DNA of 64,000 bases from Acidobacteriota bacterium (GTDB lineage: Bacteria; Acidobacteriota; UBA6911), in contig DATJPG010000010.1 of the NCBI GenBank assembly GCA_035506515.1, forward strand, positions 7,423-71,422. Reading direction: 5' to 3'. This document shows, piece after piece, positions 3,772-45,292 of the stretch. The notes under the pieces are model-generated. The model saw nothing but the letters and a program-made list of their open reading frames with translations, made no database searches and had not been told where the DNA came from. The position numbers and the translations under genes were made by a program. How positions within the stretch are numbered: position 1 is the first letter of the stretch; every line of letters starts with the position of its first letter.

Positions 3772-3830
3772 CAGAGTCTGCTAGTAGGTTAGGAAATGTG
3801 CTAGCTTCAATTTGGACAGGTTCCTGGATA

Positions 3831-5045: not shown

Positions 5046-5094
5046 CAATTCGGTTTGATCCCAATGTGCTCCGATGTGAATCGGAGATGCAAAA

Positions 5095-6093: not shown

Positions 6094-6144
6094 TTTCTGC
6101 CGCAGAAAAAGTGAGTCTTCTCCATCCGATGCCTATGCAGACAC

Positions 6145-7227: not shown

Positions 7228-7285
7228 GAATCCTCCCGGACCGACCTGTCGCGCGTTGTCCTGGGACTTTTCTGAACGTCGGGCA

Positions 7286-8344: not shown

Positions 8345-8483
8345 AAAAATGAATATTGGGGCAATTCGGTAGAAGAGGGTATTTCGTTCATCCGCTTTTT
8401 GAAAGAAGCATGGGACCGGGAGGCGAGAAGGATTCCAATAGAACCCAAGTCGTCACGAGCCTTCTGCCGTACGCGTTTTCCGG

Positions 8484-23306: not shown

Positions 23307-25427
23307 ATGGGTCTCGTGTGTGGCGGCATTTTCACAGGAGCTTCACTGAGGCGGGACGCGATGTTTAATCTGGCCTATTTAAACTCGCTTTCATTCATCG
23401 TGGGGATTGTTACTGCGATGCTGGTTTTTTTCTTCCGGCGGTTAGGGAACGCGTCCCGGCTGCTTGCGCTGTTTCTGGTACTGTCTTCGTGTTCCGCGGG
23501 CATTCTCGCTTTTCCGTCTTTTATGGATGGAAGAACAATGGGTGCGTTTCTCCGGCTCTCATTCTGTCTGCTCATGGCTGCGGCACCGCTGGGAGTCATC
23601 GTCAGCTGCATGGTTGGCCGCGAGTCGCATCAACGGCTTTTGGGCGAGAGGCGCATTCCTACCTGCTTCATGCTGATCGCTGTGCCCATCGGAATCTTCT
23701 GGATTTACTCTGGATCGCCCTCACACAACCTGCAGCTTCCGCCCGGAGAAGGAGCGCTTGGGCCTGCCGCTTATTTCTGCTCCCTCTATCTCGTGCTGCT
23801 TTCCATCATTGTGCTGGCCAATCTCGAACAGACGCTCCGAAGCGCACAGGAATATGTCCGTTGGGAAATCAAGTTTCTATTGCTGGGAATTGCGGGCAGC
23901 TTCGCATCGGTCATCTACTGCGCTTCGAAAGTGCTTTTATACCCGCCGAGGCTGGGACTTATTTCCCTAAACTCCATGCAGATCTTTCCGCTGGTGTTTC
24001 TTTTTTCCTGCCCCCTCATTCTCGTGTCGTGGAAACGGAGCACCGGGCGATGGAAAGTATCCGTTTCTCCGGGTCTTGTTTACAGATCCGTTACCATCGT
24101 CGGCGTCGGAATCTACCTGATCGTTTCCAGCTTTGCGGCATGGTGGGTGGGACACTGGAATAATTCGGAAAACTCAATAGAAGCGGCATTATTCCTCATC
24201 CTGCTCTTAGTCCTCGCCTTGATTCTTCTGTGGACCGATTTCCGGCACCGGGTGAAGCACTGGATCCGCAGGCATCTTCTTGCCGGCAACTATGACTATC
24301 GCCGGTACTGGCTGGAGGCCAACGAGCGAATCCAGTCCATCGATCCACCGGACGTTGCCGGCGATGCCTTTGCGGACATTGTGCAGAAGGCAGTCGGCGC
24401 AATCGATGTCAGTATCTGGCTGCGACTGGCAAACCCGACGCGGCTGAGGTTGGTTGGAACGCGCGGCGAGGTGTCTTACCCGCCGGGAGGAGAAGTCTCC
24501 GGAGTATTTGAGAGGATTGTTGACCTTGAAAAGCCTACCCCTGTCGACTCATTCGGCTGGGGGCCGTCGCAAGAGCCGATGGCAACTTTTCTGACGCTGA
24601 CAAAGGCGTCGGTCCTTGTCCCGCTACGGTCGGGGAACCGCATGGTGGGACTTCTTACCGTCGGTTCGGATCGCAGTGGGGAACGCTATGACTGGAATGC
24701 GTTGGAGTTCCTTGGTGTGCTTGGGAGACATGCGGCCGGCGAATTCCACAAGACGGACTTGCTCTCCACCCTGGTGGAAACCAAGGAAAATGAAGCATTT
24801 CATGCTTTTTCGACATTTTTGCTGCACGATTTGAAGAATTTCGCCTCAACCCTTTCTCTGATCGCAAAGAATGCGTCCCGCTACCAGGACGATCTCAATT
24901 TCCAGCGTGATGCTTTCCAATCTGTGTCCGATACGGCTGAAAAAATGAAGCGGCTGTGCAACAGCCTGCGGGCCTTTTCAGGGGCGGCGGCGGACAAAAG
25001 GCCCAATAATTTAAATCAGATTGTGCAAAGGGTTGCCGATAACTTTTCTGGAGATTTAGGAGAGCGACTGGTTCTGGATCTTGCTGAAATTCCGCTTGTC
25101 CCTATTGATTCCGAGGATACAGATCGAGTTCTGCGCAACGTGCTGCTAAACGCGCACGAAGCTATTTCGCAGACAGGTACCGTAATAGTTCGAACGCGCA
25201 ACCTCGGTTCACAGGTCGAAGTTTCGGTGGAAGATAACGGATGCGGAATGAAGGCCGAATTCCTCCAAAAAGAGCTCTTTGTGCCGTTTCGTACGACGAA
25301 AAGCGAAGGGTTGGGGATCGGGCTATACCAGACGAAGAAAATAATGGAAGCGCATTGCGGGACGATTCTGGTAGAGAGCCGACCGGGGCACGGGACAGTG
25401 GTGCGGCTGTTGTTCCCGCTGACCTGA
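23307..25427 (+). CDS. prsK: PEP-CTERM system sensor histidine kinase (PrsK-like)
   Basis: Polytopic N-terminal membrane domain, a GAF-like middle region, HisKA H-box FSTFLLHDLKNF, and HATPase_c (EDNGCGM, GLGIGLY). It lies next to the prsR-like regulator and the exosortase gene. Confidence 0.8.
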   Translation: MGLVCGGIFTGASLRRDAMFNLAYLNSLSFIVGIVTAMLVFFFRRLGNASRLLALFLVLSSCSAGILAFPSFMDGRTMGAFLRLSFCLLMAAAPLGVIVSCMVGRESHQRLLGERRIPTCFMLIAVPIGIFWIYSGSPSHNLQLPPGEGALGPAAYFCSLYLVLLSIIVLANLEQTLRSAQEYVRWEIKFLLLGIAGSFASVIYCASKVLLYPPRLGLISLNSMQIFPLVFLFSCPLILVSWKRSTGRWKVSVSPGLVYRSVTIVGVGIYLIVSSFAAWWVGHWNNSENSIEAALFLILLLVLALILLWTDFRHRVKHWIRRHLLAGNYDYRRYWLEANERIQSIDPPDVAGDAFADIVQKAVGAIDVSIWLRLANPTRLRLVGTRGEVSYPPGGEVSGVFERIVDLEKPTPVDSFGWGPSQEPMATFLTLTKASVLVPLRSGNRMVGLLTVGSDRSGERYDWNALEFLGVLGRHAAGEFHKTDLLSTLVETKENEAFHAFSTFLLHDLKNFASTLSLIAKNASRYQDDLNFQRDAFQSVSDTAEKMKRLCNSLRAFSGAAADKRPNNLNQIVQRVADNFSGDLGERLVLDLAEIPLVPIDSEDTDRVLRNVLLNAHEAISQTGTVIVRTRNLGSQVEVSVEDNGCGMKAEFLQKELFVPFRTTKSEGLGIGLYQTKKIMEAHCGTILVESRPGHGTVVRLLFPLT

Positions 25428-25487
25428 GGATCGCTGATTATTAAGAAAGCGGCAGCTCGCCGCCGCTTTGCCAAATGAGATAAGGAC

Positions 25488-26840
25488 ATGTTGCCGAAGC
25501 TGCTGGTTGTGGATGACGATGAGCAGATTCTTCGCCAGATTCGGTGGGCATTGTCGGAGGATTATGCCGTTTACATGGCATCCGACCGGCAGAGCGCCCT
25601 CGATTTGTTCCAAAGGGAAAAAGTTTCGGTCGCACTGCTCGATCTGGGACTGCCCCCTCATCCGCGGGAAGCGGCGGAAGGCCTCCTCGCGCTGGATGAA
25701 ATGATCGCATTGAATCCGCTGGTCAAAGTAATCATCGTTTCCGGCAATTCTGAGCGCAAGAATGCCCTCCGCGCGATCGAGAGAGGAGCGCATGACATAT
25801 TTCCCAAGCCTGTAGACCTCGACGCATTGAAGATCGTATTGAGCCGGGCTTTTAAGCGTCTCGAATTGGAAAAGGAGAGCATCGAGGAACGCCACATGGC
25901 CCAGCGTGTTTCGCTGGAGGAAATGATTGGCCAGAGTCCCGCGATGAAAAATATTTTCGCCGCGGTGCGCAAGGTGGCTTCGACGGAAGTTCCGGTCCTG
26001 ATTCTCGGAGAAAGCGGCACAGGCAAGGAATTGATCGCCAACGCGATCCACAACCGAAGTGCGAGGAACCATGGGCCGTTTGTGGCTATCAACTGCGCTG
26101 CCATACCCGAAACTCTCCTGGAAAGCGAATTGTTCGGACACGAGAAGGGATCTTTCAGCGGGGCAATCGCCCAGAGACGCGGCAAGTTTGAGTATGCCAA
26201 AGGAGGAACCCTCTTCCTCGACGAGATTGGCGATCTGGTCCCTGAACTGCAAGTCAAGATTTTGCGATTCCTGCAGGAGAAAGTGGTGGAGCGCGTGGGC
26301 GGCAGGGAGTCCATCCACGTCGATGCCCGCGTCATCGCGGCCACGAATCAGGACCTGGAAGCGGCCGTCAAGAATGGCAGGTTTCGCGAAGACCTTTATT
26401 TTCGTCTGGCCGTGGTCCGTTTGGTTCTGCCTCCATTGCGCGAACGGGGCGAAGATGTCATTGAGCTCGCACATCACCTCGCGGAGTCTTATTGCCGCGA
26501 AATGAAGAAGCCGCCCATCCGGTTTTCGAAATCGGCGTTGGACGCCATGCGTCGCCATGCGTGGCCGGGGAACGTCCGCGAACTTCAAAACCGTGTCCAG
26601 CGCGCGCTGGTGCTTTCAGACGGCAAGATGATCAATCCCGCCGAGATGGATTTGTTCGAACTGCCGGGCGAGCAAGAGAATCCACTGAGCACCTTGAAGG
26701 AAGCGCGACAGGGGTTTGAACGCGACATTATTGCGCGCGCATTGAAGGAAAATGACGGGAACATATCGAAGACTGCGCGGGCGATTGGGATCAGCCGGCC
26801 CACGCTCTACGAACTTCTGGAGCGCCATGGACTTCGATAA
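25488..26840 (+). CDS. prsR: PEP-CTERM-box sigma-54-dependent response regulator (PrsR-like)
   Basis: Receiver domain (LLVVDDD...D), AAA+ sigma-54 interaction domain (GESGTGKE, GAFTGA-like ESELFGHEKGSFSGA), and C-terminal Fis-type HTH. Confidence 0.85.
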   Translation: MLPKLLVVDDDEQILRQIRWALSEDYAVYMASDRQSALDLFQREKVSVALLDLGLPPHPREAAEGLLALDEMIALNPLVKVIIVSGNSERKNALRAIERGAHDIFPKPVDLDALKIVLSRAFKRLELEKESIEERHMAQRVSLEEMIGQSPAMKNIFAAVRKVASTEVPVLILGESGTGKELIANAIHNRSARNHGPFVAINCAAIPETLLESELFGHEKGSFSGAIAQRRGKFEYAKGGTLFLDEIGDLVPELQVKILRFLQEKVVERVGGRESIHVDARVIAATNQDLEAAVKNGRFREDLYFRLAVVRLVLPPLRERGEDVIELAHHLAESYCREMKKPPIRFSKSALDAMRRHAWPGNVRELQNRVQRALVLSDGKMINPAEMDLFELPGEQENPLSTLKEARQGFERDIIARALKENDGNISKTARAIGISRPTLYELLERHGLR

Positions 26841-27717
26841 TATGAATGGCCGCCTGAGCGGAGAAACACTGAATCTGAAGATTGCCACCGCACTCGCGCT
26901 GCTTCTTGTCTGTTTCGGAATCCTGTATCGCCCAATCATCGGCGAATTGGCGCAGGATTGGCTGCATGACGACAATTGCTCTCATGGCTTTTTAATTGTT
27001 CCGCTCGCTCTTTATTTTGCGTGGGAGCGGCGCCTCAAGTTTGTCCTGGCCAAACAGAGACCCTCATCCACAGGCGCCGTGCTCTTCGCGCCGGCCATAC
27101 TTGCAGCCGCATTAAACATGCATCCCTTCGTGAATCGCATTGCGATGCTGCTGTGTGTTGTGGGCGCAGTAGTTTTTCTCTGCGGATGGGCCCGGTTGAA
27201 GGTGATGTTTTTTCCTATTGCCTTTCTCTTGCTGATGATTCCGATTCCCGCGGTTATATTCAACCCCCTGACATTCCCTCTTCAATTGCTCGCATCCCGC
27301 TTCGGAGAATTGGTTCTGGTTGCGTGCCGTGTCCCGGTGCTGCGGGAGGGAAATATCATGCAGCTGGCAAACACGAGCCTCGAAGTTGCCGAAGCCTGCA
27401 GCGGAATACGGTCGCTGATATCACTTTTGACGCTGGCAATTGTGTATGGATATTTTGTCGAGTCACGGATCTGGGTTCGAATTGCGCTTGCAATCGCCGC
27501 CGTCCCGGTTGCAATTGCCTCGAATGCAATCCGTGTGGCCGGCACCGGGCTGGCAGCTCATTTCTATGGCGCGGAAGCCGCCGAGGGGTTTTTCCATTCA
27601 TTTTCCGGCTGGCTGGTTTTTATAGTGGCCTTTGTATTGCTTTTCGCCCTGCACCGCGTGCTGCTTTTGTTTTTGGCGGCCAGGAAAGCCGCTGAGGGTG
27701 CAATGGAGTCTCCCTGA
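26827..27717 (+). CDS. xrtA: Exosortase A (XrtA/EpsH)
   Basis: 8-TM protein with the exosortase active-site motifs EACSGIRSL (Cys) and ASNAIRVAG (Arg). The ATG at 26827 overlaps the prsR stop by 14 nt (ORF track 26752). Confidence 0.85.
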   Translation: MDFDNMNGRLSGETLNLKIATALALLLVCFGILYRPIIGELAQDWLHDDNCSHGFLIVPLALYFAWERRLKFVLAKQRPSSTGAVLFAPAILAAALNMHPFVNRIAMLLCVVGAVVFLCGWARLKVMFFPIAFLLLMIPIPAVIFNPLTFPLQLLASRFGELVLVACRVPVLREGNIMQLANTSLEVAEACSGIRSLISLLTLAIVYGYFVESRIWVRIALAIAAVPVAIASNAIRVAGTGLAAHFYGAEAAEGFFHSFSGWLVFIVAFVLLFALHRVLLLFLAARKAAEGAMESP

Positions 27718-27730
27718 TGAGGAGCCGCTG

Positions 27731-28396
27731 ATGAACATGTCGATGACGGCCCGAGTTCTTGTTCTTTGCGTCTGCATGCTTGCCGGCACCTGGTTGCTTG
27801 CGCACGACCGGGGACCCGTTTCCGTTCCGCCACGCGATTCGCTGTCGACTCTGCCCATGGAAATCGGTCCATGGAGCGGCCAAAACATGAGCGATCTCAG
27901 CAATGATGCGCGCACGATGCTTCGGGTTACCGATTACACAAACCGCACCTATGTGAAACCGGACCGAACAAGCATTGGATTGTATATCGGGTATCATGCG
28001 GAAGGTGGATTCCACTCGCCGCTTAATTGCCTGCCGGGATCCGGCTGGATCCCCGTCAAAACCGGACGCATCGATCTCCCGGTGCAGTTGCTACCGGAGA
28101 AGAGCGGTTTCATAACGTCGATTCATATCAACCGCATAGTGATTTTAAAAGGTTTGGACAAACAGGTGGTGCTTTACTGGTACCAGGGATGTGGCCGGGT
28201 AATCGCAAGCGAGTACTGGGGACTCATTTATGGGATGGTCGACAAAATGCGTTTAGGGCGTACGGATGCGGCACTGGTACGCATCACCAGCCCGGCAACA
28301 TCGCTGGAACCTGCAGCCGAAAATGCCGCCGGCAACAATGCTGTCGATTTTACCCGACTGATTTTCCCGATGCTCAGCCGCTACATCCCGAATTAG
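27731..28396 (+). CDS. epsI: Exosortase-associated EpsI family protein
   Basis: It immediately follows xrtA. Its GAGGA RBS sits 7 nt before the ATG at 27731. It has an N-terminal TM segment and a periplasmic domain. Confidence 0.75.
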   Translation: MNMSMTARVLVLCVCMLAGTWLLAHDRGPVSVPPRDSLSTLPMEIGPWSGQNMSDLSNDARTMLRVTDYTNRTYVKPDRTSIGLYIGYHAEGGFHSPLNCLPGSGWIPVKTGRIDLPVQLLPEKSGFITSIHINRIVILKGLDKQVVLYWYQGCGRVIASEYWGLIYGMVDKMRLGRTDAALVRITSPATSLEPAAENAAGNNAVDFTRLIFPMLSRYIPN

Positions 28397-28463
28397 GCGT
28401 GCTTCGGTGAGTCAAGAGACAATAGTTGTTCGATACAATTCCTGTATCTAGCTGGAGGAAATT

Positions 28464-31400
28464 ATGAGTAGCTCAAGGCGATATTCGGCCGGGTTGCTTC
28501 TTTGGGCTCTATCGGTTTTGCTGGCGGCCGGGTGTTCCGGGAATCACCAAAAGCATATTGCCAGCGGGAAATCATACCTCGCCCAGGGGAAATACAACGA
28601 GGCACTGATCGAATTCCGGAATGCGGTCAAGGCAAATCCTAATGTGTCCGAAACCCACTACAATCTGGCGATTGGACAGCTCAATGCCGGCCAATTTGGT
28701 GACGCCTATCAATCGTTGATTAAAACGGTCCAGCTGAATTCGAACAACACGGATGCCCAGTTATATCTTGCGGATCTTTTGCTGCTAGAGAGCAAGTTTG
28801 ACGAGGCAAGGCTTAAAGCGGATCTCGTTCTTAAACGCAATCCCGGTAATCTTAAAGCACTCATCATCCTTGGAAATTCGTATTCGCAGATGATCCAGCT
28901 GGACGATTCCGCCGGCGAAATAAAAAGGGGCTTACAGCGAGAACCGCGTTTTCTGCCTTCCTACAAGGATCTTGCCGACAGGAAGGATGCCCGGCGCGAA
29001 GAAAAGCTTGCCGAGGAGTCGTATGCAAAAGCCGCGGCAGCGAACCCGAGCTCCGTGCTGCCGAAAATCGCACTTGCCAACTTTTACATGATCCTCAATC
29101 GACCGGTCGAATCGGAAAAGCTCCTGCAGGAAGCGCTGGCTCAGGACGCGAAATCGGCCGATGTGAACAACGCGCAAGGTTTCTTCTTTCTACAGAACCA
29201 AAGATTGGCCGAAGCGGAGGCCGCCTACACTCGTGTGCGAGATGCCGTCCCGAACGATCCCCTCCCCAAAATTGTGCTGGCAGATTTCCTAATGGGAACC
29301 GGCCAGACAGACCGGGCAATGGATGCCTATCGGAATCTGGCGGCCGAAAGTTCCACGAACATTTTGGGCCGGGCGCGGCTGGCTAATGCGTATCTGTCTC
29401 GCGGGGAATTCGACAAAGCCGGCTCCATCATCGATGAAATTCTGAAAATCGACCCGAAGGATGCGGATGGGCAAGTGCTTCACGGCCAGCTTTTGTTAAT
29501 GCAGAAAAAGGTCCCGGAAGCCATGCAAGCCCTGCAGACGGCTCTGAAAACAAGGCAGACGTCCGCACAAGCCCACTATTTCATGGGGTTGGCTCAGATT
29601 AGCTCAGGCGATGTGCAGAAGGGTGAGTCGGAATTGAAAACGGCTCTAATCCTCGATCCGTCGCTGACGCAGGCATATCTGGCGCTTGCCCGATTGAAGA
29701 TGAATTCAGGCGATTTTCAGAATGCCGCTTCTCTCGCGAGGCAAGCTTTGGATCTTAGTCCCAACCTGGATGATGCGCGGCTCATTCTGGCGGGCGCGCT
29801 TATAAAAACGAAGGATTACCAGAACGCAAGGGCAGAACTGGAATCGTTTGTCGGCAAGAACCCGTCCAATGAGGTCGGCCATCTCAGGCTGGGTGAGGTC
29901 TACAGAGCCCAAGGTAACGTACAGCAGGCCGAGAAGGAGATGGAGTCATCTCTGAAGATAAATCCGCATTACGCGGATGCCTTGGACTCGCTTTCGGATT
30001 TGTATCTTGCCCAGGGGAGTCCGCAGAAAGCTCTGGATCGGATCAACCGGGCCATCGAGCAAAATCCCCAACAGGCAAAACTGTATGAGATCCTCGGGCG
30101 GACGTACGGCAAGATGAAAAATTATGCGAAGGCCGAAGAGGCCTTCTTGAAGGCGGTATCGATTGATCCCAATAACGCGACCTATCGCCAGAGATTGGGC
30201 GCGTTTTATGCCGTGATAGGCAAGAATGACAAGAGTATCGAAACCCTGGAGAAACTGGCCAGGGAGAATCCGGCCAACATTGGATTTAAGTTCGGGCTGG
30301 CGAATGCCTACTTCGATCAGAAATCATATGGAAATGTCGACGCGATCGCGAACGAAATCCTGAAGGCAAATCCGAAGAATCCCGAAGGATTGCTGCTTAA
30401 GGGAAGGACCCTGCTTGCGCAGAACAACGCTGCCGCTGCCGTCGCCCCGCTAAAGCAGGCATTGGATGTGTCGCGGGATTCCGCTGAAGCACAATATCTC
30501 CTGGGACTGGCGTATTTTCAATTGGGGAATCGATCGGGCGCCGAGAAGGCATGGTCCGACGCAGCCCAGAGCCAGAACCGTTCGGCGGCGCCCGCTATCG
30601 CCTTGGCAAAGCTTAAACTTGAATCGAAGAACGCAGATGAGGCAATCCGATACGCCCAACAGGCCAAGACAATCGACCCAGGCAACAAGGAAGCGCAGCT
30701 GATTCAGGGATCGGCCAATCTTCTTAAGAAAGACTACGGGACCGCGACCACCGACCTGGAGTCTTATGTCCACGCCTGTCCTGATGATGCGGTCGGACAA
30801 CAACGTCTGGGCACTGCATACCTGAATATGGGGAATTTCGCCCGTGCCGAATCCCAGTTTGAAGCTGCCCTCAAAATTGACCCGGCTTCCAGGGAGGCGC
30901 TGGTTGGGATCGCAAATCTGTGCATGCACCAGAAGAGACCGGAAAAAGCCATTCAGCGCATAAATCAACAGCTAACGCGTTTAAGCGGTCCGGCTCGGGG
31001 GGGAGCTTTCACCCTCCTGGCCGAGCTTTATTTCCAACAGAAGGACGCTGTTCGTGCTGAAGACGCGCTGAAGAAGGCTATTGAGGCCGACTTGAAAAAT
31101 CCCGCCTATCGCACGGCTCTGGCGGCATTTTACGAGTCGAGTGGAAATCCCGGCAAAAGCGCGGAGGTGATGCAAAACCTGGCGAAGGAGCAACCCGGGA
31201 ATGTCTCGATCAAAAAGCAATTGGCTGCTTTATATACGCAGCAGAAGTCATGGGAGAAGGGAATTCAGGTCATCGACGAAGTCTTGAAGTTGAACGCAAA
31301 GGATTCAGAAGCCCATGTTTTGAAAAGCCGTTTGCTGATCGGGCAAGGGAAGGTGGATGATGCCATATCCGAAGCGCGGAATGCCGTCAATGCCAACCCG

Positions 31401-32468
31401 AAGTCCAACGCAGCCCGCTATGCACTGGGACAGGCTTACTACTCTAAGGATCCTAAGTCGCCGAATGCCGAATCAGCCTGGACCGAAGCGATCAACTCCG
31501 ATCAGCATAACCTTGCTGCCTATCTGGCTTTAAGCCAGCTGAAACTGAACGCGGGCGATTATCCTTCCGCTATTCGATATGCGCAGCAGGCGCTGCGTGT
31601 AGAGCAGAATGCCGACGCTCATTTGCTGATGGGAAAAGCCTATTCGGGCCAGGGCGATGGCAAGAATGCAGCGGAGCAATACCGAGAGTATCTGAAAATC
31701 AAACCGGACGATGTCGAGGTTCGTGCATTGGCGAATGCCCTGCTCAGCGGCGACAGCCCAGCCAAAGAGCTGCAAGCCATCAACCGGGAGATTGCCCGGT
31801 CCCCCGACCAGCCGAAGCTCTACGAAATGCAGGGTCAGGTTTATGCCAGGCAAAAGGACTTTGCAAAAGCCGAACAGTCGTTCCGAAAAGCCCTTTCGCT
31901 CGATGCCAACGACTTCGATGCCCATAATCTTCTCGGAATACTCTACACATTCCAGAACCTCAACGATAAGGCGATCCGGGAGTTCGAAAACGCACTGAAG
32001 ATCAACCCCAAGTCTTCCCAGACTTGGTACAAAATGGGATTAATTTATCAGCAGCAGAGCAATCCTCAAAAAGCGATACAGAACTACCGTGAAGCGCTGA
32101 AGATCGATCCGCTGCATGTCGAGGCGGCAAACAACCTGGCGTGGCTGATCGGTGAAACCGGAGGGAATCTGGGTGAAGCGCTGAGTCTGGCGCGTGCAGC
32201 AAATCAGAAAGCGCCCGATGATCTCAATGTGACCGATACGCTCGGTTGGCTGTATTATCGCAATAAAGCGTATCGTTCTGCCGTGGACGCTCTAAAGGAA
32301 TGTGTTGCGAAAGATCCGAAAAATCCCGTGTTTCGCTATCACCTTGGAATGAGTTACTTTCAATTGGCGGATAAAGCGAATGCAAAAGCTTCCCTGGTGA
32401 AAGCGTTGGAATTAAGCCAAAAATTCAGTGGATCAGAGGAAGCACGGGCAATCCTGGCAAAACTATAG
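28464..32468 (+). CDS. prsT: PEP-CTERM system TPR-repeat lipoprotein (PrsT-like), 1334 aa
   Basis: Lipoprotein signal MSSSRRYSAGLLLWALSVLLAAGCSGN, followed by TPR repeats throughout. Confidence 0.8.
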   Translation: MSSSRRYSAGLLLWALSVLLAAGCSGNHQKHIASGKSYLAQGKYNEALIEFRNAVKANPNVSETHYNLAIGQLNAGQFGDAYQSLIKTVQLNSNNTDAQLYLADLLLLESKFDEARLKADLVLKRNPGNLKALIILGNSYSQMIQLDDSAGEIKRGLQREPRFLPSYKDLADRKDARREEKLAEESYAKAAAANPSSVLPKIALANFYMILNRPVESEKLLQEALAQDAKSADVNNAQGFFFLQNQRLAEAEAAYTRVRDAVPNDPLPKIVLADFLMGTGQTDRAMDAYRNLAAESSTNILGRARLANAYLSRGEFDKAGSIIDEILKIDPKDADGQVLHGQLLLMQKKVPEAMQALQTALKTRQTSAQAHYFMGLAQISSGDVQKGESELKTALILDPSLTQAYLALARLKMNSGDFQNAASLARQALDLSPNLDDARLILAGALIKTKDYQNARAELESFVGKNPSNEVGHLRLGEVYRAQGNVQQAEKEMESSLKINPHYADALDSLSDLYLAQGSPQKALDRINRAIEQNPQQAKLYEILGRTYGKMKNYAKAEEAFLKAVSIDPNNATYRQRLGAFYAVIGKNDKSIETLEKLARENPANIGFKFGLANAYFDQKSYGNVDAIANEILKANPKNPEGLLLKGRTLLAQNNAAAAVAPLKQALDVSRDSAEAQYLLGLAYFQLGNRSGAEKAWSDAAQSQNRSAAPAIALAKLKLESKNADEAIRYAQQAKTIDPGNKEAQLIQGSANLLKKDYGTATTDLESYVHACPDDAVGQQRLGTAYLNMGNFARAESQFEAALKIDPASREALVGIANLCMHQKRPEKAIQRINQQLTRLSGPARGGAFTLLAELYFQQKDAVRAEDALKKAIEADLKNPAYRTALAAFYESSGNPGKSAEVMQNLAKEQPGNVSIKKQLAALYTQQKSWEKGIQVIDEVLKLNAKDSEAHVLKSRLLIGQGKVDDAISEARNAVNANPKSNAARYALGQAYYSKDPKSPNAESAWTEAINSDQHNLAAYLALSQLKLNAGDYPSAIRYAQQALRVEQNADAHLLMGKAYSGQGDGKNAAEQYREYLKIKPDDVEVRALANALLSGDSPAKELQAINREIARSPDQPKLYEMQGQVYARQKDFAKAEQSFRKALSLDANDFDAHNLLGILYTFQNLNDKAIREFENALKINPKSSQTWYKMGLIYQQQSNPQKAIQNYREALKIDPLHVEAANNLAWLIGETGGNLGEALSLARAANQKAPDDLNVTDTLGWLYYRNKAYRSAVDALKECVAKDPKNPVFRYHLGMSYFQLADKANAKASLVKALELSQKFSGSEEARAILAKL

Positions 32469-34435: not shown

Positions 34436-34966
34436 TTACTTCCGCCTGTTTGCAGGAAATGCGGGCAGGGGCTGTGAATTGGCCTCCAGGCAGGCCTTGA
34501 TGAAGCGGTCGATGAGATTCCGCACAGTTGATCTGATCTGTTCTTTCCCCAGCGAATTGTTTTGATCGCCGATGATCAGGCCGCGTTTCCACGTGACCGC
34601 AAAATCTTTTAGTCCGTTTGCCTCGATCGTCACGCTTTGCCAAAACTCGACTTGCACATATGCGGAATATCCGAAAACGACTCCGGTTTTTGACTTATCC
34701 AGAAGCACTGTAACGGTGACTGCAAGCATAGGGGAATATTTGCTGTCCACTTCCATCCCCGCAGCTCTGAGCTTTTGCTCCACATCGGCCTTCAATTGCT
34801 GTTCTGTCAACCCAAGAGCAGCGGATGCATCATTCAGCCGTTCGATGACCACCTCGCATCCGCGAATATTCTTCAATGTGTGATTTCTTGTATCCAGCTT
34901 TTCATCAGAACGAGCCGTGGAAGATATGAGGCAAAAGACCAATGCGGGAAGGGCAAAAATTCTCAT
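34436..34966 (-). CDS. Secreted hypothetical protein
   Basis: Signal peptide MRIFALPALVFCLISSTARS; no recognisable domain. Confidence 0.4.
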   Translation of the reverse strand: MRIFALPALVFCLISSTARSDEKLDTRNHTLKNIRGCEVVIERLNDASAALGLTEQQLKADVEQKLRAAGMEVDSKYSPMLAVTVTVLLDKSKTGVVFGYSAYVQVEFWQSVTIEANGLKDFAVTWKRGLIIGDQNNSLGKEQIRSTVRNLIDRFIKACLEANSQPLPAFPANRRK

Positions 34967-35205
34967 TCTATGTTTTTCTCCCTGGAGCGCTACATAAGAG
35001 CCGCCAAAAGCCTTCCTTGAAGCATCTGGATGTACCCATTTTACATTCGATGCGAGTCAGTACAAAGCAAGTTTGCCGCATGCTGCATCCAGTCTTTAAG
35101 GCTTTTAAACCATAACAAATATAAATAAACAATAATAAACAATAAAATACGTGACATTTTTGAGAAAGGATGGTTTAATAGAATTACACGCCAAGGAGAA
35201 ATTAG

Positions 35206-35406
35206 TTGTCCAATGAAATCATGACCATCGAGGAGGTGGCTGAGTACCTCCGCCTGAAGCCGCAAACGATTTACACATGGGCACAGGAGGGGAAAATACC
35301 GGCTGCCAAACTCGGCAATCAGTGGCGCTTCAAGAAGTCGGTCATCGATCGATGGTTTGCCCGGCACTTTGACGACAAGTTTAAGGACCTTTTGAATGAG
35401 GAGTAG
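35206..35406 (+). CDS. Excisionase-family (MerR-like) helix-turn-helix DNA-binding protein
   Basis: TIEEVAEYLRLKPQTIYTWAQEGKIPAAKLGNQWRF. AAGGAG RBS 7 nt before the TTG at 35206 (alternative ATG at 35221). AT-rich promoter region upstream. Confidence 0.6.
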   Translation: MSNEIMTIEEVAEYLRLKPQTIYTWAQEGKIPAAKLGNQWRFKKSVIDRWFARHFDDKFKDLLNEE

Positions 35407-35523
35407 CGAAGGCACGTCGATGCCGTCATTCGGTGATTCCGCAAATGATTTATTAAGCATCCGTCAGGAGCGAATTGGTTTTGAGGATCCCAAACTGAAG
35501 AGTTAAGCAAGCAGGAGACTATC

Positions 35524-36234
35524 ATGGCCAACCGGAAACTCTTGTCGTTTGACTTTTTCCAAAGCTTTCACAGCAATGATGCATTCTATGAAAAAATTAC
35601 CGATGAAACGCAGCTCAAGCCCGAGATCTTGAAGCACCTGGTTCTGGTTCTGCTTTTTTCCATAATCTATGGCGCCATCATGGGGAGCTACAACAGCTTC
35701 TGGCAAGCCGTATCCTCGGCCATAAAGATGCCGGTGCTCATTCTGCTTATTGTTGTCATCTGTTTCCCGGCCTTTTATGTCATCCAGACGGTGCTCGGTT
35801 CCAGGCTCTCGCTCGGTCAGATGATATCGATCATACTCAGCGGCTTTGTGTTTATGACGTGCATCATGGTTTCCTTTTCCACGATTGTTCTCTTTTTTAT
35901 GATCACGGGAAGCAACTACAATTTTCTCAAGTTGCTGCATGTCCTGATCATTGTCGTTGCCGGGTTTTTCGGCATGCGCGCCATCGTGGAAGCGCTTAAA
36001 TATTCATGCGAAAAGAAGAGCGTCTACCCGAAAACAGGCGTGTACGTCTTCCGCATCTGGATATTCATTCTGGCGTTCGTCGGGGCTCAGCTTTCCTGGT
36101 CTCTGCGGCCGTTTATCGGCGCCAAAGATGCCCCTTTTGAAGTGGTCCGGCAAAAATACGGCAATTTTTATGTAGACGTTTTGCAGTCGATGGGCTCAAT
36201 TTTGGTTCCTGCCAAAAAGGCACCTGAAAAATAG
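35524..36234 (+). CDS. Yip1-like / DUF-type integral membrane protein
   Basis: Five predicted TM helices; Yip1-like topology. Confidence 0.4.
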   Translation: MANRKLLSFDFFQSFHSNDAFYEKITDETQLKPEILKHLVLVLLFSIIYGAIMGSYNSFWQAVSSAIKMPVLILLIVVICFPAFYVIQTVLGSRLSLGQMISIILSGFVFMTCIMVSFSTIVLFFMITGSNYNFLKLLHVLIIVVAGFFGMRAIVEALKYSCEKKSVYPKTGVYVFRIWIFILAFVGAQLSWSLRPFIGAKDAPFEVVRQKYGNFYVDVLQSMGSILVPAKKAPEK

Positions 36235-36343
36235 GACCGGTTGGGAAAAGTTACTGCACGCGGGGATGCTGGTTGGACACAGCTTGAGTTACCGAAGACG
36301 GGGAAGTGCGCCTTATCAATCGAAATGGACCAAGGGGCCGGAT

Positions 36344-36694
36344 TCAATTTCCATGAGGCTTCGAACGCACTGTTTGCGGCGTCAGTTTGAGATTGGGGAA
36401 CATGCGGAAGAAGGAATCAAGCGATCGGTCACTTCCATCAAAGATCTCGAGTGTGTCGTTGGGCAAGAAATGCCGCTTCGATAACTCGAGAGACTCCAGC
36501 CGAGCAGCTTCCAGAAAAATTTCCAGGCTGGAATAATCCCGATCATCAAGCACGACATACTCGACGATCTCGCTCCCTCTTTTGGTGACAGCAGCAATCA
36601 CTCTGATCATTGTGATGGTAGTATCCCCGAACTCGATAGAGTTCAATCTGCTTGATAGCTGGGGCTGGTTGGGGACATAGTCTCCGACCTGCAC
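36344..36694 (-). CDS. Hypothetical protein (co-oriented with, and 24 nt downstream of, the peroxiredoxin gene)
   Basis: ORF only; no recognisable motif. Confidence 0.3.
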   Translation of the reverse strand: MQVGDYVPNQPQLSSRLNSIEFGDTTITMIRVIAAVTKRGSEIVEYVVLDDRDYSSLEIFLEAARLESLELSKRHFLPNDTLEIFDGSDRSLDSFFRMFPNLKLTPQTVRSKPHGN

Positions 36695-36718
36695 TGATGC
36701 TTCCTGATGCCCGCTGTG

Positions 36719-37264
36719 TTATCGGTTCAACTTCTTTACCTGGCACGCCTCCACGACTTTTGTCGGGTCGATCGCGTCGCTGTCCAGTTGCATCTCTACC
36801 ACTTTGCCACTCTTGTCGATCAGGTAATTCACCCGGCGCCCCGTTTTTTTCTGCAGGTCGTAAAGGCCGTACATTTTCGTGACCTCTCCGCCCCAGTCGC
36901 TCAGCAGCGGGAATGTCACCCCGATTTTCTCGGCCCACGCCCGGTTTGAAAACGGCGAGTCCATGCTCACACCCAGTACCTGGGTATCGGCGGCTTCCAG
37001 CTTGGCGAGGTTTTGCTGGAAGTTCTGCATCTGCCTGCTTCAACCGCCGGTAAACGCGAAGAGGTAAAACGCAAGCACAACACTTTTCTTCCCCCGGTAA
37101 TCGTGTAACGATATCCGCCCGCCGCTCTGGTCGGTCAGCGTAAAATCCGGAGCGACATCACCTGTCTTCACTTTGGGAGGAGGCGTGTTGCCCGGCTGAT
37201 CCACCGCGTAGCCGCCGGGCAACAGACTGCCCCACAGCAGCAATGCCAGCAATACTCGTCTCAT
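36719..37264 (-). CDS. Prx5/redoxin-type peroxiredoxin with an in-frame TGA at the peroxidatic-Cys position: candidate selenocysteine peroxiredoxin (alternatively a nonsense pseudogene)
   Basis: Two same-frame ORFs (37040..37264 and 36719..37030) are separated only by a TGA at 37040–37042. The joined product is MRRVLLALLLWGSLLPGGYA...VVLAFYLFAFTGG-U-SRQMQNFQQNL...LIDKSGKVV..., where AFTGG[U]S aligns with the Prx5 active-site motif AFTPGCS. An 8-bp perfect hairpin lies 17 nt downstream of the UGA. Confidence 0.6.
36994..37022 (-). promoter_or_regulatory. Candidate bacterial SECIS-like hairpin downstream of the in-frame UGA
   Basis: mRNA CUUCCAGC-AAAACCUCGCCAA-GCUGGAAG (8-bp stem, 13-nt loop) starts 17 nt 3' of the UGA. 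Confidence 0.45.
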
Positions 37265-37626
37265 GGACCCCCCCGATCTTTTGTAGCGAATCCCATACAG
37301 GCACTAACTATGCATATTGTGACACACTGTTGGGTGTTTTGCGATACGGCCTTGTGAGGGGCAGCGAAATGGTTTTCGCTCATAGCAAACCCCTCCATCG
37401 TTTGGGTGAGCTATTGAGCAAAATCCTCAGAAAGCAATTTCGAATACCGGATGTACGCGATTATCGAGGAAGTGAAATCTCCCTGTGACTCATCAAGAGT
37501 CCTCGGAAGTAATCTAGTGCGCAGGGCACGGCCTCCGTTCGCACTGATTATTTCCTGGAATGCTGGACCGCAGTGCTCAGAGCGATGGTAGGATAGGCTT
37601 CATTTTCATGGTCGGGGAGGCGAATA

Positions 37627-38082
37627 ATGCGTCTGCATTTTGGAGCAATTGCCTTTATTGTTCTCATTAGCGCGACCTGTTCCAAGTACAACGGCCCGGA
37701 AACTGGTAACAAACGCAGCCAAAACGAAATTCCTGCCGAGTCAGTCGACCTGAATGGGGATGGAGTTGAAGATCGCGTTAGCATCGTTAAGGATTCTGCT
37801 CGTAATGTAACCCTTACCGCCGAAATCAAGCTGCCAAACGGTATCAAAAAAGAATCGCTGAAGTTTTATGTTGCTCGTGGCAAACAGGATGGTTTTTGCA
37901 GTTGGCCTGTTGAACTGATAGCAGAACCCCTTGACTATGATCCTGACCCTGCTGTTGGCCCACTGCAGGGCTATGTGAAATCAGATCGCACCGTCGGTTT
38001 GAGGATCTCAGATGGCGAGTGTGACGATTTCCATCTCTACTGGAATCACGTTAGCCAGAGCATCGACTGGTGGCGTCCATAA
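37627..38082 (+). CDS. Putative lipoprotein, hypothetical
   Basis: Signal peptide with a lipobox-like ISATC; contains a DLNGDGVED calcium-binding-like motif. Confidence 0.4.
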   Translation: MRLHFGAIAFIVLISATCSKYNGPETGNKRSQNEIPAESVDLNGDGVEDRVSIVKDSARNVTLTAEIKLPNGIKKESLKFYVARGKQDGFCSWPVELIAEPLDYDPDPAVGPLQGYVKSDRTVGLRISDGECDDFHLYWNHVSQSIDWWRP

Positions 38083-38351: not shown

Positions 38352-38753
38352 ATGACCGATAAAAATGTCCCGACAGCCGAACTCGAGGTGCTGGCCTGCA
38401 TTCGGCAAATGGAGCAGGCAACAGCGAGGGAGATCCGTGAGCGTATGCACTCATACCGGCCGATGGCTCATGGCTCTGTCGTGAACCTGCTCAAGAGACT
38501 CGAAGCGAAGAAACTCATTACCAAGAAGAAGGGGCCCGTGGGTAAAGCCTTCGTCTACCGGCCGCGCGCCGCCACGGCATCGATCTATGAAGGCGTGCTG
38601 AACCGGCTTTTGAATCGTATCTACGGTGGAGATAGTTTGGCCCTGGTGGCTTCATTATTTGAAACCCGGCCGCCGGATATCCGTGAACTGGAGAAATTGG
38701 AGGAGTTGCTCGAAGAGCTGCGGGCAAAGCACAGCAGAAAGGAATTGCCATGA
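38352..38753 (+). CDS. BlaI/MecI/CopY-family transcriptional repressor
   Basis: Winged-helix N-terminus [39 protein letters not shown], and a C-terminal dimerisation helix. Its ATGA stop/start overlaps the downstream M56 gene. Confidence 0.85.
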
Positions 38754-40564
38754 TCCATCTGATCAACAGAATTGCAGAGGCGTGGTTCCCTTATATGGTG
38801 AGCGCGACCTTGCAGGCGACGGCGTTGACTCTGGTTGTTCTCGGCATGCTCTGGATCGGACGCCGTTGGTCTCCTGCACTGCGCTATGCGCTTATGATGC
38901 TGGCCCTGTGTAAATTTGTGATCCCCCCGATGCTATCCCTGCCCACAGGGCTGTTGAACCACATTCAGGCACAGCAGTGGGCCGAATCGGCGCTATCGCT
39001 GCGTTGCGTAGCACCCATTGCTCAGAGTGTTCTCGGCCCTGTTAGTAATGCCCAACACAGGAGCATGCAGGCTCTCCCCCAGGCTTCTCACCCGAAGCTA
39101 TCGCTCACTACCAACGGGAGACTGTTATTGTTTCATCTTTCCGGAGCATTACTGGTTCTGGCAGTTGTAGCGCTGCAGAAGATTCGCCTTGGCCGGCTTG
39201 CTTCTCGCGCCGCTACAGCCCAAGCCCCTGCCTTGGCGGATACCTATGATGCGCTTTGCCAGAGCATGAAGCTGAGCCGCAAGCCGCGGCTTCTCATTTC
39301 CAGTGACAATCAAGCACCCATAACTTTTGGGGCATGGAAACCGGTAGTGATGCTGCCGCAGGCGCTTGTTTCCGCACTGCCATTACCTGAGATTCGAGTG
39401 ATCCTCGGACATGAACTGGCGCACAATCGCCGGCGAGATCCGTGGATAGCCTGGCTGCAGGTGATCATTTCGGCGTTCTGGTGGTTTAATCCTGTTTATT
39501 GGCTTTTATCCCGAAGCATTCGTGGAGTTCGCGAGGATTGCTGCGATGATATGGTACTGGCCTCAGGACTTGCTTCGCGCGAAGTGTATTGCCGGACGCT
39601 GCTGAAGGCTGCTCGGGCAGCCTTGGAGAATCAAGCCGTAACGCGAGCCGCCTTTGCGTATCTGGGCAAATCGCTGCCGTTGCGACGCAGGCTTAAGAGA
39701 ATCATGAGCGCCAGATTCATCCGCGCTCCGAAGCTTGCCTTGGCCGGGATGCTGTTGATTGTCGCACTCGCACTTGTTCTGCTGCCCGGAGTCGAGCCGC
39801 GCATCCTTGCTCAAAACGCGATCCGCTCTGAATCACACTCCTGGAACATAAATCCTGCCCCACAGGACACGGCTGCGGTTTCGGATGAAGCTTTGAGAGC
39901 CGAGAGCGGATCACCGGATGAAAACCGAAACAAATTGCATGAACCTCCGTCCGGATCCGGGCAGCCCCGAGCCGAGTTGTTTGAGACGGCCCAGAGCCCG
40001 AACGCTCCCAACACCAACGCTCAAATGACACCTAAGCAGCAGTCCCAATTATCTCAAGAAATGGCGATCTCCGAGTATTACGGGTTCCGGAAGTGGCTGG
40101 ATGAGGACGTGGTTTACATCGCTACCCAGGAAGAAAGGGATGCATTCCTGGCTCTAAGGAACAACCAGGAGCGGGACTTTTTCATAGAGCAGTTCTGGGC
40201 CCGTAGAAACCCAAATCCTCCCCTGGCCGATAACCCATTTAAGGAAGAGCACTATCGCCGGATCGCGTATGCAAACCAGCATTTTGCTTCGAGTGTGCCC
40301 GGCTGGAAAACAGATCGAGGGCGGATCTATATCATATACGGCAGGCCGGATGAAATCGAATCTCATCCCATCGGCGGTGCATACACTCGACCGTTTAATG
40401 AAGGGGGTGGAATGACCACTACCTATGCATTTGAGAAATGGCGGTACAGGCATATCGATGGGGTTGGAGACGATATCGAGATCGAATTCGTCGACCTGTC
40501 TGGGACAGGCGATTACCGCATTGCAATGAGCCCGGACGAGAAATTTACGCATTCCGGGCCATAA
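38750..40564 (+). CDS. BlaR1/MecR1-like M56 peptidase signal transducer with a C-terminal GWxTD-type domain
   Basis: Zinc motif [11 protein letters not shown], four N-terminal TM segments, a Pro/Ser-rich linker, and a C-terminal GWxTD-like domain containing [21 protein letters not shown]. Confidence 0.75.
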
Positions 40565-42886: not shown

Positions 42887-45292
42887 TTACACTTTCCCAA
42901 GCGCCTTTAGGACTTTATCCGGAGTCGTCGGATAATCCAGGACCCATTTGCCGGTGGCATTGTGGATCGCTGAGACAGTAACACCCGACATGCTGGCCCC
43001 GATGTTTTCACCGATGCCGCAGGCGCCATAGGCTGCGTATCCCAAGTGACTTTCGTTGATCAGGCATTGGGTAACCGGATAGTCGTTCATCGTCCCTATG
43101 TGGTACCCGATCAAATCGTAATTGAGGGCTACACCGGTGCGGGGACAGAAGATATGCTCCTCTGTGCCGCTTCGGCCCAACCCCATAACAGCGCCGCCGT
43201 ATTGTTGGGCATATGCCCCTTCGGGATTGAACAGGTGTCCGACATCGTTGACGCAAACTATGTTGGTCACCTCGACCATTCCCGTTTCCGTGTCTACCTC
43301 GACCTCGATGAAGTGCGCCTGTCTGGGCATCGCGTACGATTGAGGGTCCGGTGCCCCGTCGGATTCATATACATGGACGCCGCCGGGTACAGGAGGATGA
43401 AAGATTGCAGGATCCTGTGTCCACCAGGCATCCGCCACCTCTCTCACTGTCTTTCGATTGCCTGGGTTCGCTTTCTCGAAAACGAAGCTGTCTTTGATAT
43501 CCAGATCTTCGGGCTTTTTGTCGGGGAAGAGTGGTGGACGTGCGGGACTGGCAAACGAAGCCGGCCTCGGCCTTACAGCATATTCAAGAATTTTCTGTTT
43601 TAGTTGCTGGGCGGCGGGGATTAGCTGGGTATTGATGTAACATGTTCCAAAGGAACCTCCCGGTTGCCAGAGGTGGTAATTCGTATTGTCGGAACGTCGC
43701 TCCAGCATGACCGTGTCTTCGTACTTGAGTCCGGCCTCCGAGGCTACCGCAAGACGCGAGCCCGATTCCGTATCGATCCCCATATCGCTGCGGGCCCCTA
43801 TAATGGCGGCCTTACCTTCACGCAGCGTCACGCATGCGAAGGAGGCACCGGGAGTGGGCGCATACCAGTGCCATTCATTCACGTGGATGAAACCAAGTCC
43901 ATGCATTCTTCCGTTCGGGAGCTTTTTCGTCCCGGGTGGATGCCATTTCTCCTCCCATCCGATCGCCTTTTTGCCTTTGTCGATTACTTCCTTGAGGCTC
44001 CACTTTTCAGGGAATCCGTTTGTCTTCTGATACCGGGTGACCCATTCCCAATCATGGCCGGCGCAGCCGTCGTTTTTCAGGGCGACTTCTGTCGGGTCCA
44101 GCCCCATTTCTGCCGAAACACGCGCAAACATTACGTTGTGTGGGACGCACGTATGGGATCCGTGCCGGAAACACATACTGTGCCCCGTATTGACCAGGGC
44201 CCATTCCTGTGTGCCCAGGATGTTGGGAATTTTGGTGCTGACACGCGTCTTATCAATCGCGGGATTTCGAATCCCAAGCATGTGCCAATGAAGCGCGTTG
44301 ATAGTGCCGTCCTTTTTGACTCCAACCTTGCACTTATAGGTCCCTGCATCGTCGCCGCCGCAATAATAGCCGCTCTCGTCCCAAAGCAGTTTCACGGGTT
44401 TCCCCGCCGCTCTTTTGGCAAGGATCGCGGTGAGGCGGATAAAGGCATAGGAGTAGGAAAGCCATGAAAAGCCGCCGTACCACGAACCCTGGTAGGGCAT
44501 CGTGACGGTGATCTTGGCCCACTCGGCAAGAGGAGCTCGGGGCTTTTCACGGACCGTGTTAGGAGTGGTAACCGTAGCTTGAGGAAGATCCTGGTGATGG
44601 ACCCAGAGATCGAGAAAATCGCCTCTCCACTGGGCAACACAAACAATGGGCTCAACACCTGCCGGCGTATTCCGGGCGCGAGTGATGGTGTATTCAATCA
44701 CCTTGTCGGCTTCCGCGAAACCTACCTCGACATTGCCGAATTCAGTGCGATCGGTAAGAACCGTATTCGGTTCTTTAGCCTTCGGGTTCATGAACTTCAC
44801 CTCAGGCATGATCTTTGGTGCGTCCGGCTTGAGGGATTCCGCCATATCGAGGATGAAGGGCCGTTCTTCCCATTCTATTTTCAGGAGCCGCAGCGCGCGG
44901 TCGCATATTTCTTCGGTGTCGGCCACGACCACGACACCCATCGGGTGCTGGAAGAATTCGGAGGTTCGGGGCAGGGTCAGCAGGTTGTAGTTGCGGGAAA
45001 CCTCAAAGCCCGGCAGCGTCTCGTTGTCGAACTCGATGACCGGGTCATCGTATTTCAAGATGTCCCGCACGCCCACGAGAGCTTCGGCCTGGCTTGAATC
45101 AATGCTCTTGATCCGCGCATGCGCATAGGGAGAAAGGAGGATTTTCGCGTAGAGCATTCCGGGGAGATTGACATCTCTTGTAAAAACCGCCTGTCCGCTG
45201 ACTCTCTCGAATGCGTCCTGCCGGTTGATCGCGCGGCTCATGTCTTTGCTGGTTTCGGGAACTTTCCACGTCCATGGTCGATATTCCGCCAT
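42887..45292 (-). CDS. Xanthine dehydrogenase / aldehyde oxidase family molybdopterin-binding large subunit
   Basis: 801 aa with an N-terminal a/b hammerhead region and Mo-cofactor-binding domains. No adjacent 2Fe-2S or FAD subunit genes. Confidence 0.75.
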   Translation of the reverse strand: MAEYRPWTWKVPETSKDMSRAINRQDAFERVSGQAVFTRDVNLPGMLYAKILLSPYAHARIKSIDSSQAEALVGVRDILKYDDPVIEFDNETLPGFEVSRNYNLLTLPRTSEFFQHPMGVVVVADTEEICDRALRLLKIEWEERPFILDMAESLKPDAPKIMPEVKFMNPKAKEPNTVLTDRTEFGNVEVGFAEADKVIEYTITRARNTPAGVEPIVCVAQWRGDFLDLWVHHQDLPQATVTTPNTVREKPRAPLAEWAKITVTMPYQGSWYGGFSWLSYSYAFIRLTAILAKRAAGKPVKLLWDESGYYCGGDDAGTYKCKVGVKKDGTINALHWHMLGIRNPAIDKTRVSTKIPNILGTQEWALVNTGHSMCFRHGSHTCVPHNVMFARVSAEMGLDPTEVALKNDGCAGHDWEWVTRYQKTNGFPEKWSLKEVIDKGKKAIGWEEKWHPPGTKKLPNGRMHGLGFIHVNEWHWYAPTPGASFACVTLREGKAAIIGARSDMGIDTESGSRLAVASEAGLKYEDTVMLERRSDNTNYHLWQPGGSFGTCYINTQLIPAAQQLKQKILEYAVRPRPASFASPARPPLFPDKKPEDLDIKDSFVFEKANPGNRKTVREVADAWWTQDPAIFHPPVPGGVHVYESDGAPDPQSYAMPRQAHFIEVEVDTETGMVEVTNIVCVNDVGHLFNPEGAYAQQYGGAVMGLGRSGTEEHIFCPRTGVALNYDLIGYHIGTMNDYPVTQCLINESHLGYAAYGACGIGENIGASMSGVTVSAIHNATGKWVLDYPTTPDKVLKALGKV

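Follow-up and report, generated by a model that had tools for sequence, protein, structure and literature searches.

A very probable selenocysteine peroxiredoxin in Acidobacteriota: a conserved in-frame UGA at the peroxidatic position of an AhpE/BCP-like protein, followed by two RNA hairpins

The stretch of DNA analyzed here, 64,000 nucleotides (nt) of contig DATJPG010000010.1 from an Acidobacteriota bacterium (the window), contains on its minus strand a peroxiredoxin gene (37264..36719) whose sequence and translation show one in-frame TGA (37042..37040). The frame opens with an ATG (37264..37262) and closes with a TAA (36721..36719), and the TGA is the sole stop in between. The list of open reading frames (ORFs) holds the gene as two minus-strand pieces in the same frame, one of 74 amino acids (aa; 37264..37040) and one of 103 aa (37030..36719), which reproduces the coordinates of the original prediction. 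That prediction had the pieces separated only by the TGA; they do share a frame, but the TGA is followed by three sense codons (AGC AGG CAG) before the ATG at which the ORF track restarts. Read through, with the recoded residue counted, the product has 181 residues instead of the 178 given earlier, and the site reads ...AFYLFAFTGG-[TGA]-SRQMQNFQ.... TGA serves as an ordinary terminator in the window, where it ends 5 of the 24 Pfam-supported genes, and an internal in-frame TGA is found in this one alone among those 24.

We consider it very likely that a single intact gene occupies the locus and encodes an exported, AhpE/BCP-like peroxiredoxin with selenocysteine (Sec) at its peroxidatic residue. 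This reading is based on the conservation of the UGA, the presence of Cys at the site in homologues, the alignment of the codon with the peroxidatic Cys of AhpE, and the selection acting on the RNA downstream, which together bear out the proposal of a selenocysteine peroxiredoxin candidate as opposed to a pseudogene.

Relatives were sampled from one genome per GTDB species (592 stretches encoding a relative, the best 80 of which were inspected) and from JGI metagenomes (the best 80 of about 580 such stretches). The resulting sets hold 87 loci from genomes and metagenome assemblies and 80 from JGI metagenomes, 167 related loci or ~1.27 Mb in all. A check for sense codons in close orthologues, proposed along with the original prediction, found TGA at the site in all 166 readable related loci (87/87 genome or metagenome-assembly loci and 79/79 JGI metagenome loci). 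The best 80 stretches from GTDB species are all from Acidobacteriota (Korobacteraceae, Acidobacteriaceae, Acidoferrum, Angelobacter, and other Terriglobia) save for one metagenome-assembled genome (MAG) labeled Binatia. For 83 distinct genes with 63 to 99.8% nucleotide identity, the alignment from codon -38 to codon +107 is free of insertions, deletions, and further stops, and in the contigs inspected a 78-aa AhpC/TSA ORF always lies 9 nt ahead of a 103-aa ORF. Among the matches of a protein search are hundreds of “peroxiredoxin” fragments of 103 aa (80 to 98% identity), all beginning at the same Met, along with a few full-length proteins that have Trp or Cys at the site. More distant relatives, at 36 to 47% protein identity, have TGA at the site too. 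Many further representatives of 50%-identity clusters, down to 35% identity, are fragments of ~100 aa that begin at the same Met and thus mark further UGA forms; two of them were checked on the DNA, and both have TGA.

The gene may occur more than once in a genome. MAGs MFD05377.bin.2.25 and MFD05377.bin.1.126 each have two copies of the UGA gene on separate contigs (L044/L049 and L030/L043). A protein of 250 aa (P0252) consists of a complete Cys-type domain (YAFSGGC) and then a second copy that ends in ...YAFTGG; judging from where this protein ends, it may represent a Cys form and a UGA form placed in tandem or fused at one locus.

In the public gene calls and names inspected, the gene is either cut into parts of ~75 aa and 103 aa or has its TGA taken as Trp. 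Trp is found at the catalytic position of the “full-length” JGI proteins P0001, P0002, P0003, P0008, P0009, P0010, and P0013. For P0008 (L091 and L092, both on short contigs), the codon under the Trp is TGA, and the Trp is there because the gene caller translated TGA with genetic code 4. Such a Trp is an artefact that conceals selenoproteins. Some of the relatives carry the JGI label “mycoredoxin-dependent peroxiredoxin.” The gene is common in soil Acidobacteria; with few exceptions, the related loci inspected belong to the Terriglobia, which are among the dominant bacteria of soil. Because the gene is halved, or its UGA is taken as Trp, in the public calls inspected, the use of selenium by soil Acidobacteria is probably undercounted.

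The protein is an AhpE/BCP-like peroxiredoxin. Residues 35 to 157 match the Pfam AhpC-TSA model (PF00578) with an E value of 3.5e-36 and 124.3 bits, against a cut-off of 26, and the Redoxin model also matches, with a lower score (83.6 bits). No NCBIfam model matches at its cut-off, the scores being 81.8 against 140 bits for BCP (PRK09437) and 71.9 against 270 for the PrxU equivalog (NF040737). In a sequence search of the PDB, the top seven matches are entries for AhpE of Mycobacterium tuberculosis (E value of about 1e-24), and BCP comes next (2e-22), which is a small margin. An AlphaFold model is available for a Cys homologue, P0011 (predicted local distance difference test [pLDDT] of 78). Foldseek with this model places the Burkholderia ambifaria alkyl hydroperoxide reductase 5enu first (2.6e-14) and AhpE a close second (7.0e-14); AhpE entries fill most of the top ranks, and AhpE and BCP lead. 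The original prediction had labeled the protein as Prx5 type. Prx5-type peroxiredoxins belong to the same superfamily, with a thioredoxin fold and a T-x-x-C active site, and the match to the Redoxin model is a likeness to them. However, this assignment is rejected, as AhpC-TSA outscores Redoxin in Pfam and no Prx5 is present among the 60 sequence and 50 fold matches listed, the best of which are AhpE and BCP.

Alignment with M. tuberculosis AhpE places U75, encoded by the UGA (37040..37042), on the peroxidatic Cys45 (LAFTGIC) and R144 on R116, which confirms that the stop falls exactly at the peroxidatic Cys. The T72-G-G-U75 string and R144 are invariant in relatives and match T-G-I-C45 and R116 of AhpE. 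The Thr72 codon of this T-x-x-U motif (37049..37051) is ACC in the window and in 79/83 relatives, and the Arg144 codon lies at 36833..36835. Homologues with Cys at the UGA site have TGT (P0011) or TGC (P0060), the codons also read as TGT or TGC in L088 and L089, and among full-length representatives of 50%-identity clusters, 11 of the 17 inspected have Cys in the string (F/Y/L)AF(T/S)xxC. Another conserved residue is Cys174 (codon +99; 36743..36745), which is Cys in 83/83 relatives and also in most Cys-type relatives. It is a candidate resolving residue.

The N terminus has, by eye, the features of a signal peptide: it is basic and is followed by a hydrophobic core and a small-x-small cleavage motif. 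The predicted Sec-type signal peptide covers residues 1 to 20 (37205..37264), with MRRVLLALLLWGSLLPGGYA followed at the cleavage site by VDQ. Relatives have the same N-terminal pattern, MK..LLALLLAGSLLPASYA followed by AD, after a ribosome-binding site of the GAGAGGAGAG type. These features are consistent with export via a Sec-type signal peptide.

The RNA downstream of the UGA is also conserved. Among the 83 genes, synonymous variation falls between codons -3 and +25 (36965..37051), with a mean normalized codon entropy of 0.39 inside this zone and 0.68 outside (Mann-Whitney P = 5e-5). Several degenerate codons are fixed, including TTC (82/82) and CTG (83/83) in the first of the two hairpins described below and ACC (83/83) and GGT (83/83) in the second. 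The Gly codons directly 5' of the UGA (37043..37048) are GGC GGT here and GGT GGT in most relatives; GGT is found at these positions in 74/82 and 78/83 genes, while most other Gly codons of the gene favor GGC. GGTGGT precedes the UGA in 113 of 148 distinct sequences.

With 78 distinct sequences as input, RNAalifold gives a consensus of two hairpins, H1 and H2, with 98% of cells paired. H1 (36994..37022; +20 to +48 from the U of the UGA) begins 17 nt past the UGA and has a stem of 8 base pairs (bp), CUUCCAGC/GCUGGAAG, with a 13-nt loop, AAAACCUCGCCAA; the stem, loop, and distance are those first described for this site, at 37022..36994. At -11.0 kcal/mol, its fold is more stable than that of every one of 200 dinucleotide shuffles. 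The seven core pairs are paired in 94 to 100% of 148 distinct sequences. H2 (36969..36987; +55 to +73), which is the better supported of the two and was missed by the original prediction, has an 8-bp stem, AUACCCAG/CUGGGUGU, with a 3-nt loop that is GUA here and GUN in relatives, and an energy of -9.5 kcal/mol. Its pairing holds in 100% of cells in the 78 sequences and in 99 to 100% in the 148 distinct sequences, and it shows compensatory changes: the pair +62:+66 is GC in 116, AU in 25, and GU in 7 of these sequences, and the pair +56:+72 is CG in 83, UG in 48, and UA in 17, while C-A never occurs.

Both hairpins are intact in a UGA member of only 63% identity with a different active-site string (FSPT-U). 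By contrast, the TGT homologue is without H1 and has a weakened H2, and the TGC homologue has neither hairpin. The synonymous constraint and the hairpins thus represent selection at the RNA level, unlike the situation in the two Cys homologues. We conclude that the UGA forms share a conserved recoding structure linked to the UGA, of which H1 is only a part.

A third, long-range helix (-7 to -2 with +49 to +54) was left out. It is 93% paired, one of its pairs is broken in 29/78 sequences, and a ribosome on the UGA would preclude it. A search for extra copies of the hairpin motifs gave only chance matches. One hairpin with the H1 arm sequence, TTCCAG-N13-CTGGAA, lies ~460 nt downstream (36509 to 36533), inside an orphan ORF (36344..36694); it is probably due to chance, and similar stray matches are found in L044 and L075.

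The published model of the bacterial selenocysteine insertion sequence (SECIS) calls for a loop of 3 to 9 nt with a G in its first two positions, a distance of 16 to 37 nt between UGA and loop, and an energy of at most -7.5 kcal/mol (PMC13188914). H1 was originally proposed to be such an element. Its distance, with the loop starting 25 nt after the UGA, and its energy agree with the model, but its 13-nt loop exceeds the 3 to 9 nt expected, and the first two loop positions are without a G in 20 of 148 distinct sequences, the window among them. H2 has the exact N1-G-U-N-N2 loop motif, with N1:N2 paired, on an 8-bp stem, and its energy is below -7.5 kcal/mol, whereas the distance between the UGA and its loop is 60 nt, compared with 16 to 37 nt in the model.

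Several of our observations weigh against a selenocysteine residue. Neither H1 nor H2 singly satisfies the published bacterial SECIS model. H1 shows only invariance or G-U wobble, with no compensatory substitutions in the 148 distinct sequences. A check with SECIS covariance models had been suggested; with all Rfam models and E values up to 10, the region 36900..37100 gave one chance match to an unrelated small RNA and none to a SECIS family, and a scan of the whole window at the gathering threshold found only a tRNA-Gly. The bacterial SECIS models in Rfam are lineage restricted, which makes this null result weak negative evidence. In the protein, the Pro of the PxxxTxxC/U motif is replaced by Leu68 in this product and by Ile or Val in relatives; the Pro is present in the Cys homologue P0011 and is absent from other Cys relatives too. 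The AlphaFold model of P0011 has a pLDDT of <50 at the active-site loop. As for the selenocysteine machinery, ARAGORN found only a tRNA-Gly and no tRNA-Sec in the window, and Pfam scans of 30 window ORFs found no SelA, SelB, or SelD. In the 167 related loci (~1.27 Mb), ARAGORN and tblastn with the SelA, SelB, and FdhA proteins of Solibacter usitatus, taken from the supplement of PMC1794560, found no sel genes and no tRNA-Sec.

A search with the S. usitatus SelA retrieved only Bryobacteraceae-like proteins with at least 73% identity, which is uninformative about the carriers of the gene. Further UGA-interrupted genes were also sought: the candidates with two long halves in the window looked like adjacent genes or antisense ORFs (no homology check was made), and those in the 1.27 Mb of related loci were only off-frame shadows of conserved neighbors. 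Published surveys list SelD, SelA, and SelB in Koribacter versatilis, Terriglobus saanensis, Acidobacteriaceae KBS 83, KBS 89, KBS 96, and TAA166, and S. usitatus (Peng et al. 2016, Table S1). “Candidatus Koribacter versatilis” has 11 selenoproteins (Peng et al. 2016, Tables S1 and S2; Zhang et al. 2006), while no known selenoprotein is listed for T. saanensis, Acidobacteriaceae KBS 89, and TAA166, even though all three have SelD, SelA, and SelB (Peng et al. 2016, Tables S1 and S2). The selenoproteomes of these last three may have gone undetected so far.

More distant UGA forms provide a comparison for the RNA. L093, L094, and L098, at 36 to 45% identity, have a single canonical hairpin with a 3-nt loop (GGC or GGG) ~23 nt past the UGA. 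It occupies the position of H1, and H2 is absent there. The UGA forms L095, L096, L097, and L091, at 47 to 63% identity, have the pair of H1 and H2, with a shorter variant of H1 in L096. This distribution suggests an evolutionary switch of SECIS architecture inside one protein family. One tentative explanation, which we regard as possible though rather doubtful, is a bipartite SECIS in which H2 would be the SelB-binding hairpin, 60 nt from the UGA and brought into range by the intervening, sequence-invariant H1; with H1 discounted, 31 nt would separate the H2 loop from the UGA. Selenoprotein genes with such an architecture would escape consensus-based SECIS searches, and, if the explanation is true, it might help account for those Acidobacteriaceae that have SelA, SelB, and SelD and no known selenoprotein in published surveys. 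The two-hairpin RNA, which departs from the consensus used by SECIS-prediction tools, offers a testable case for the reach of the spacing and loop rules in bacterial selenocysteine insertion.

The UGA could also be recoded to a residue other than selenocysteine, by a suppressor or near-cognate tRNA (for Cys, Trp, or Ser) with the hairpins acting as a stimulator of read-through, although we regard this as improbable. The lack of selenocysteine machinery in the window and in the related loci examined would fit such a mechanism, as would an RNA that departs from the standard SECIS model; unusual tRNAs of Acidobacteria, maybe nonsense suppressors, have been reported, as has opal decoding by Cys-tRNA(UCA) in other phyla (Mukai et al., PMC5389517). 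However, a UGA exactly where homologues have a redox-active Cys is the usual mark of a selenoprotein, and peroxiredoxins with T-x-x-U are already an established selenoprotein family. A special route to Cys would bring no obvious gain where TGT or TGC would serve, and the enzyme would lose its activity with Trp or Ser as the peroxidatic residue. SelA, SelB, and SelD have, moreover, been reported in related Acidobacteria (Peng et al. 2016), and the loop of H2 matches the SelB-type G-U motif.

Simple termination at the UGA, which would yield an exported fragment of 74 residues and possibly an independently initiated C-terminal half of 103 residues, is a very improbable account. It agrees with the two ORFs of the public gene calls inspected and with the ATG that lies 12 nt after the TGA. 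Against this, the halves belong to a single thioredoxin-fold domain; neither half could fold or catalyze alone, and both would be without the catalytic residue. The Met that follows the UGA is present in uninterrupted Cys homologues too and is thus a structural residue rather than a start; the three codons from the TGA to the ATG stay in frame across the 83 aligned distinct genes, and no ribosome-binding site was noticed by eye before the internal ATG. Least probable of all is a sequencing error or a Cys peroxiredoxin gene that a recent nonsense mutation turned into a pseudogene, the latter being the alternative named in the original prediction; we assign next to no likelihood to either. A single-base change would suffice to turn TGT or TGC into TGA, but the same TGA in 166/166 independent loci that could be read, drawn from metagenomes and many species-level genomes with nucleotide identities down to 63%, together with 83 distinct genes that are under purifying selection and have intact frames on both sides, excludes the pseudogene, and TGA is retained even in the relatives with only 36 to 47% protein identity.

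With selenocysteine as the inserted residue, which we infer from these comparisons, the gene would be expressed and its product would act as follows. Translation starts at 37264, as the sequence shows. At the UGA (37042..37040), SelB with Sec-tRNA(Sec) would outcompete release factor 2, presumably aided by the structured RNA just downstream, that is, by H1 and H2, the loop of the latter being of the G-U type typical of SelB-binding SECIS hairpins. The 181-residue precursor would then be exported through its predicted signal peptide. By the chemistry of the family, Thr72 and Arg144 would activate the selenolate of Sec75, which would reduce a hydroperoxide and become a selenenic acid. Cys174 would probably resolve this acid to a selenenylsulfide, and an extracytoplasmic thiol reductant would recycle the enzyme. 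No thiol reductant is encoded adjoining the gene in the window. An exported AhpE-like enzyme points to a selenium-dependent peroxide defense outside the cytoplasm, possibly against lipid hydroperoxides.

Selenocysteine peroxiredoxins are a kind already known, and the existence of another is no surprise. The “Prx, TxxU” peroxiredoxins are an established selenoprotein family and among the ten commonest in bacteria (Zhang et al. 2006; PMC13188914). The protein described here resembles this family, whose prototype is PrxU of Eubacterium acidaminophilum, in its AhpC/TSA fold, in Sec at the peroxidatic position within T-x-x-U, in the existence of Cys-containing homologues, and in having an in-ORF stem-loop after the UGA. 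It differs in lacking the Pro of the “PxxxTxxU” motif described for the family (PMC13188914), and, with 71.9 bits against the equivalog cut-off of 270, it does not belong to the PrxU orthologue group. Compared with the described TxxU members, it is of an AhpE-like branch and has a signal peptide and a conserved C-terminal Cys, and its gene has a two-hairpin RNA instead of one canonical SECIS hairpin. A literature search found no description of a Sec-containing AhpE.

M. tuberculosis AhpE (Rv2238c), a 1-Cys peroxiredoxin, shares the active-site string (L/F)AFTG(I/G)(C/U). However, AhpE has Cys where Sec is proposed here, is cytoplasmic whereas this protein is predicted to be exported, lacks the conserved C-terminal Cys, and is from Actinobacteria instead of Acidobacteriota, at an identity of ~35%. 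The BCP/PrxQ thiol peroxidases, the second-best group in the PDB and NCBIfam searches, are similar in their monomeric, small peroxiredoxin architecture, but the score is under their cut-off of 140, the resolving Cys of CxxxxC is absent, and the candidate resolving Cys lies in the C-terminal helix. As for the RNA, a stable stem-loop in the ORF just 3' of the UGA is shared with the bacterial SECIS consensus (bSECISearch; Escherichia coli fdhF type). The differences are that H1, although at the canonical distance, has a loop of 13 nt in which no G is conserved and that H2, although its loop is canonical, lies 60 nt from the UGA rather than 16 to 37 nt.

A TetR-family regulator is found within the fetched flank in 85 related loci, divergent and upstream where inspected, and an alpha/beta hydrolase is found in 60, directly downstream where inspected. 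The copy of the gene in the window is without these TetR and alpha/beta hydrolase neighbors. Its flanks (34436 to 38082) hold orphan ORFs of 176, 139, 116, and 151 aa without Pfam matches, and a stretch of lower GC content (0.46 at 34.5 to 36 kb) lies beside the gene. This segment of the window (34436 to 38082) may be a variable region.

On the opposite strand, a pair of genes for a BlaI/penicillinase-repressor-type regulator and then a BlaR1 M56 peptidase with a GWxTD domain (38352 to 40564) begins ~1.1 kb from where the peroxiredoxin gene starts. Elsewhere in the window, a row of genes (23307 to 32468) encodes a histidine kinase, a sigma-54 response regulator, the exosortase EpsH, and a TPR protein of 1334 aa and looks like a PEP-CTERM/exosortase-type exopolysaccharide locus. 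Further upstream are genes for a glycosyltransferase, a polysaccharide deacetylase, an ATP-grasp protein, and a DUF362 protein (1672 to 9944). Two large ORFs, of 723 aa (10030 to 12201) and 450 aa (1672 to 3024), have no Pfam match at E values up to 1e-5. The window also encodes an 801-aa molybdenum hydroxylase of the xanthine dehydrogenase/aldehyde oxidase family (42887 to 45292).

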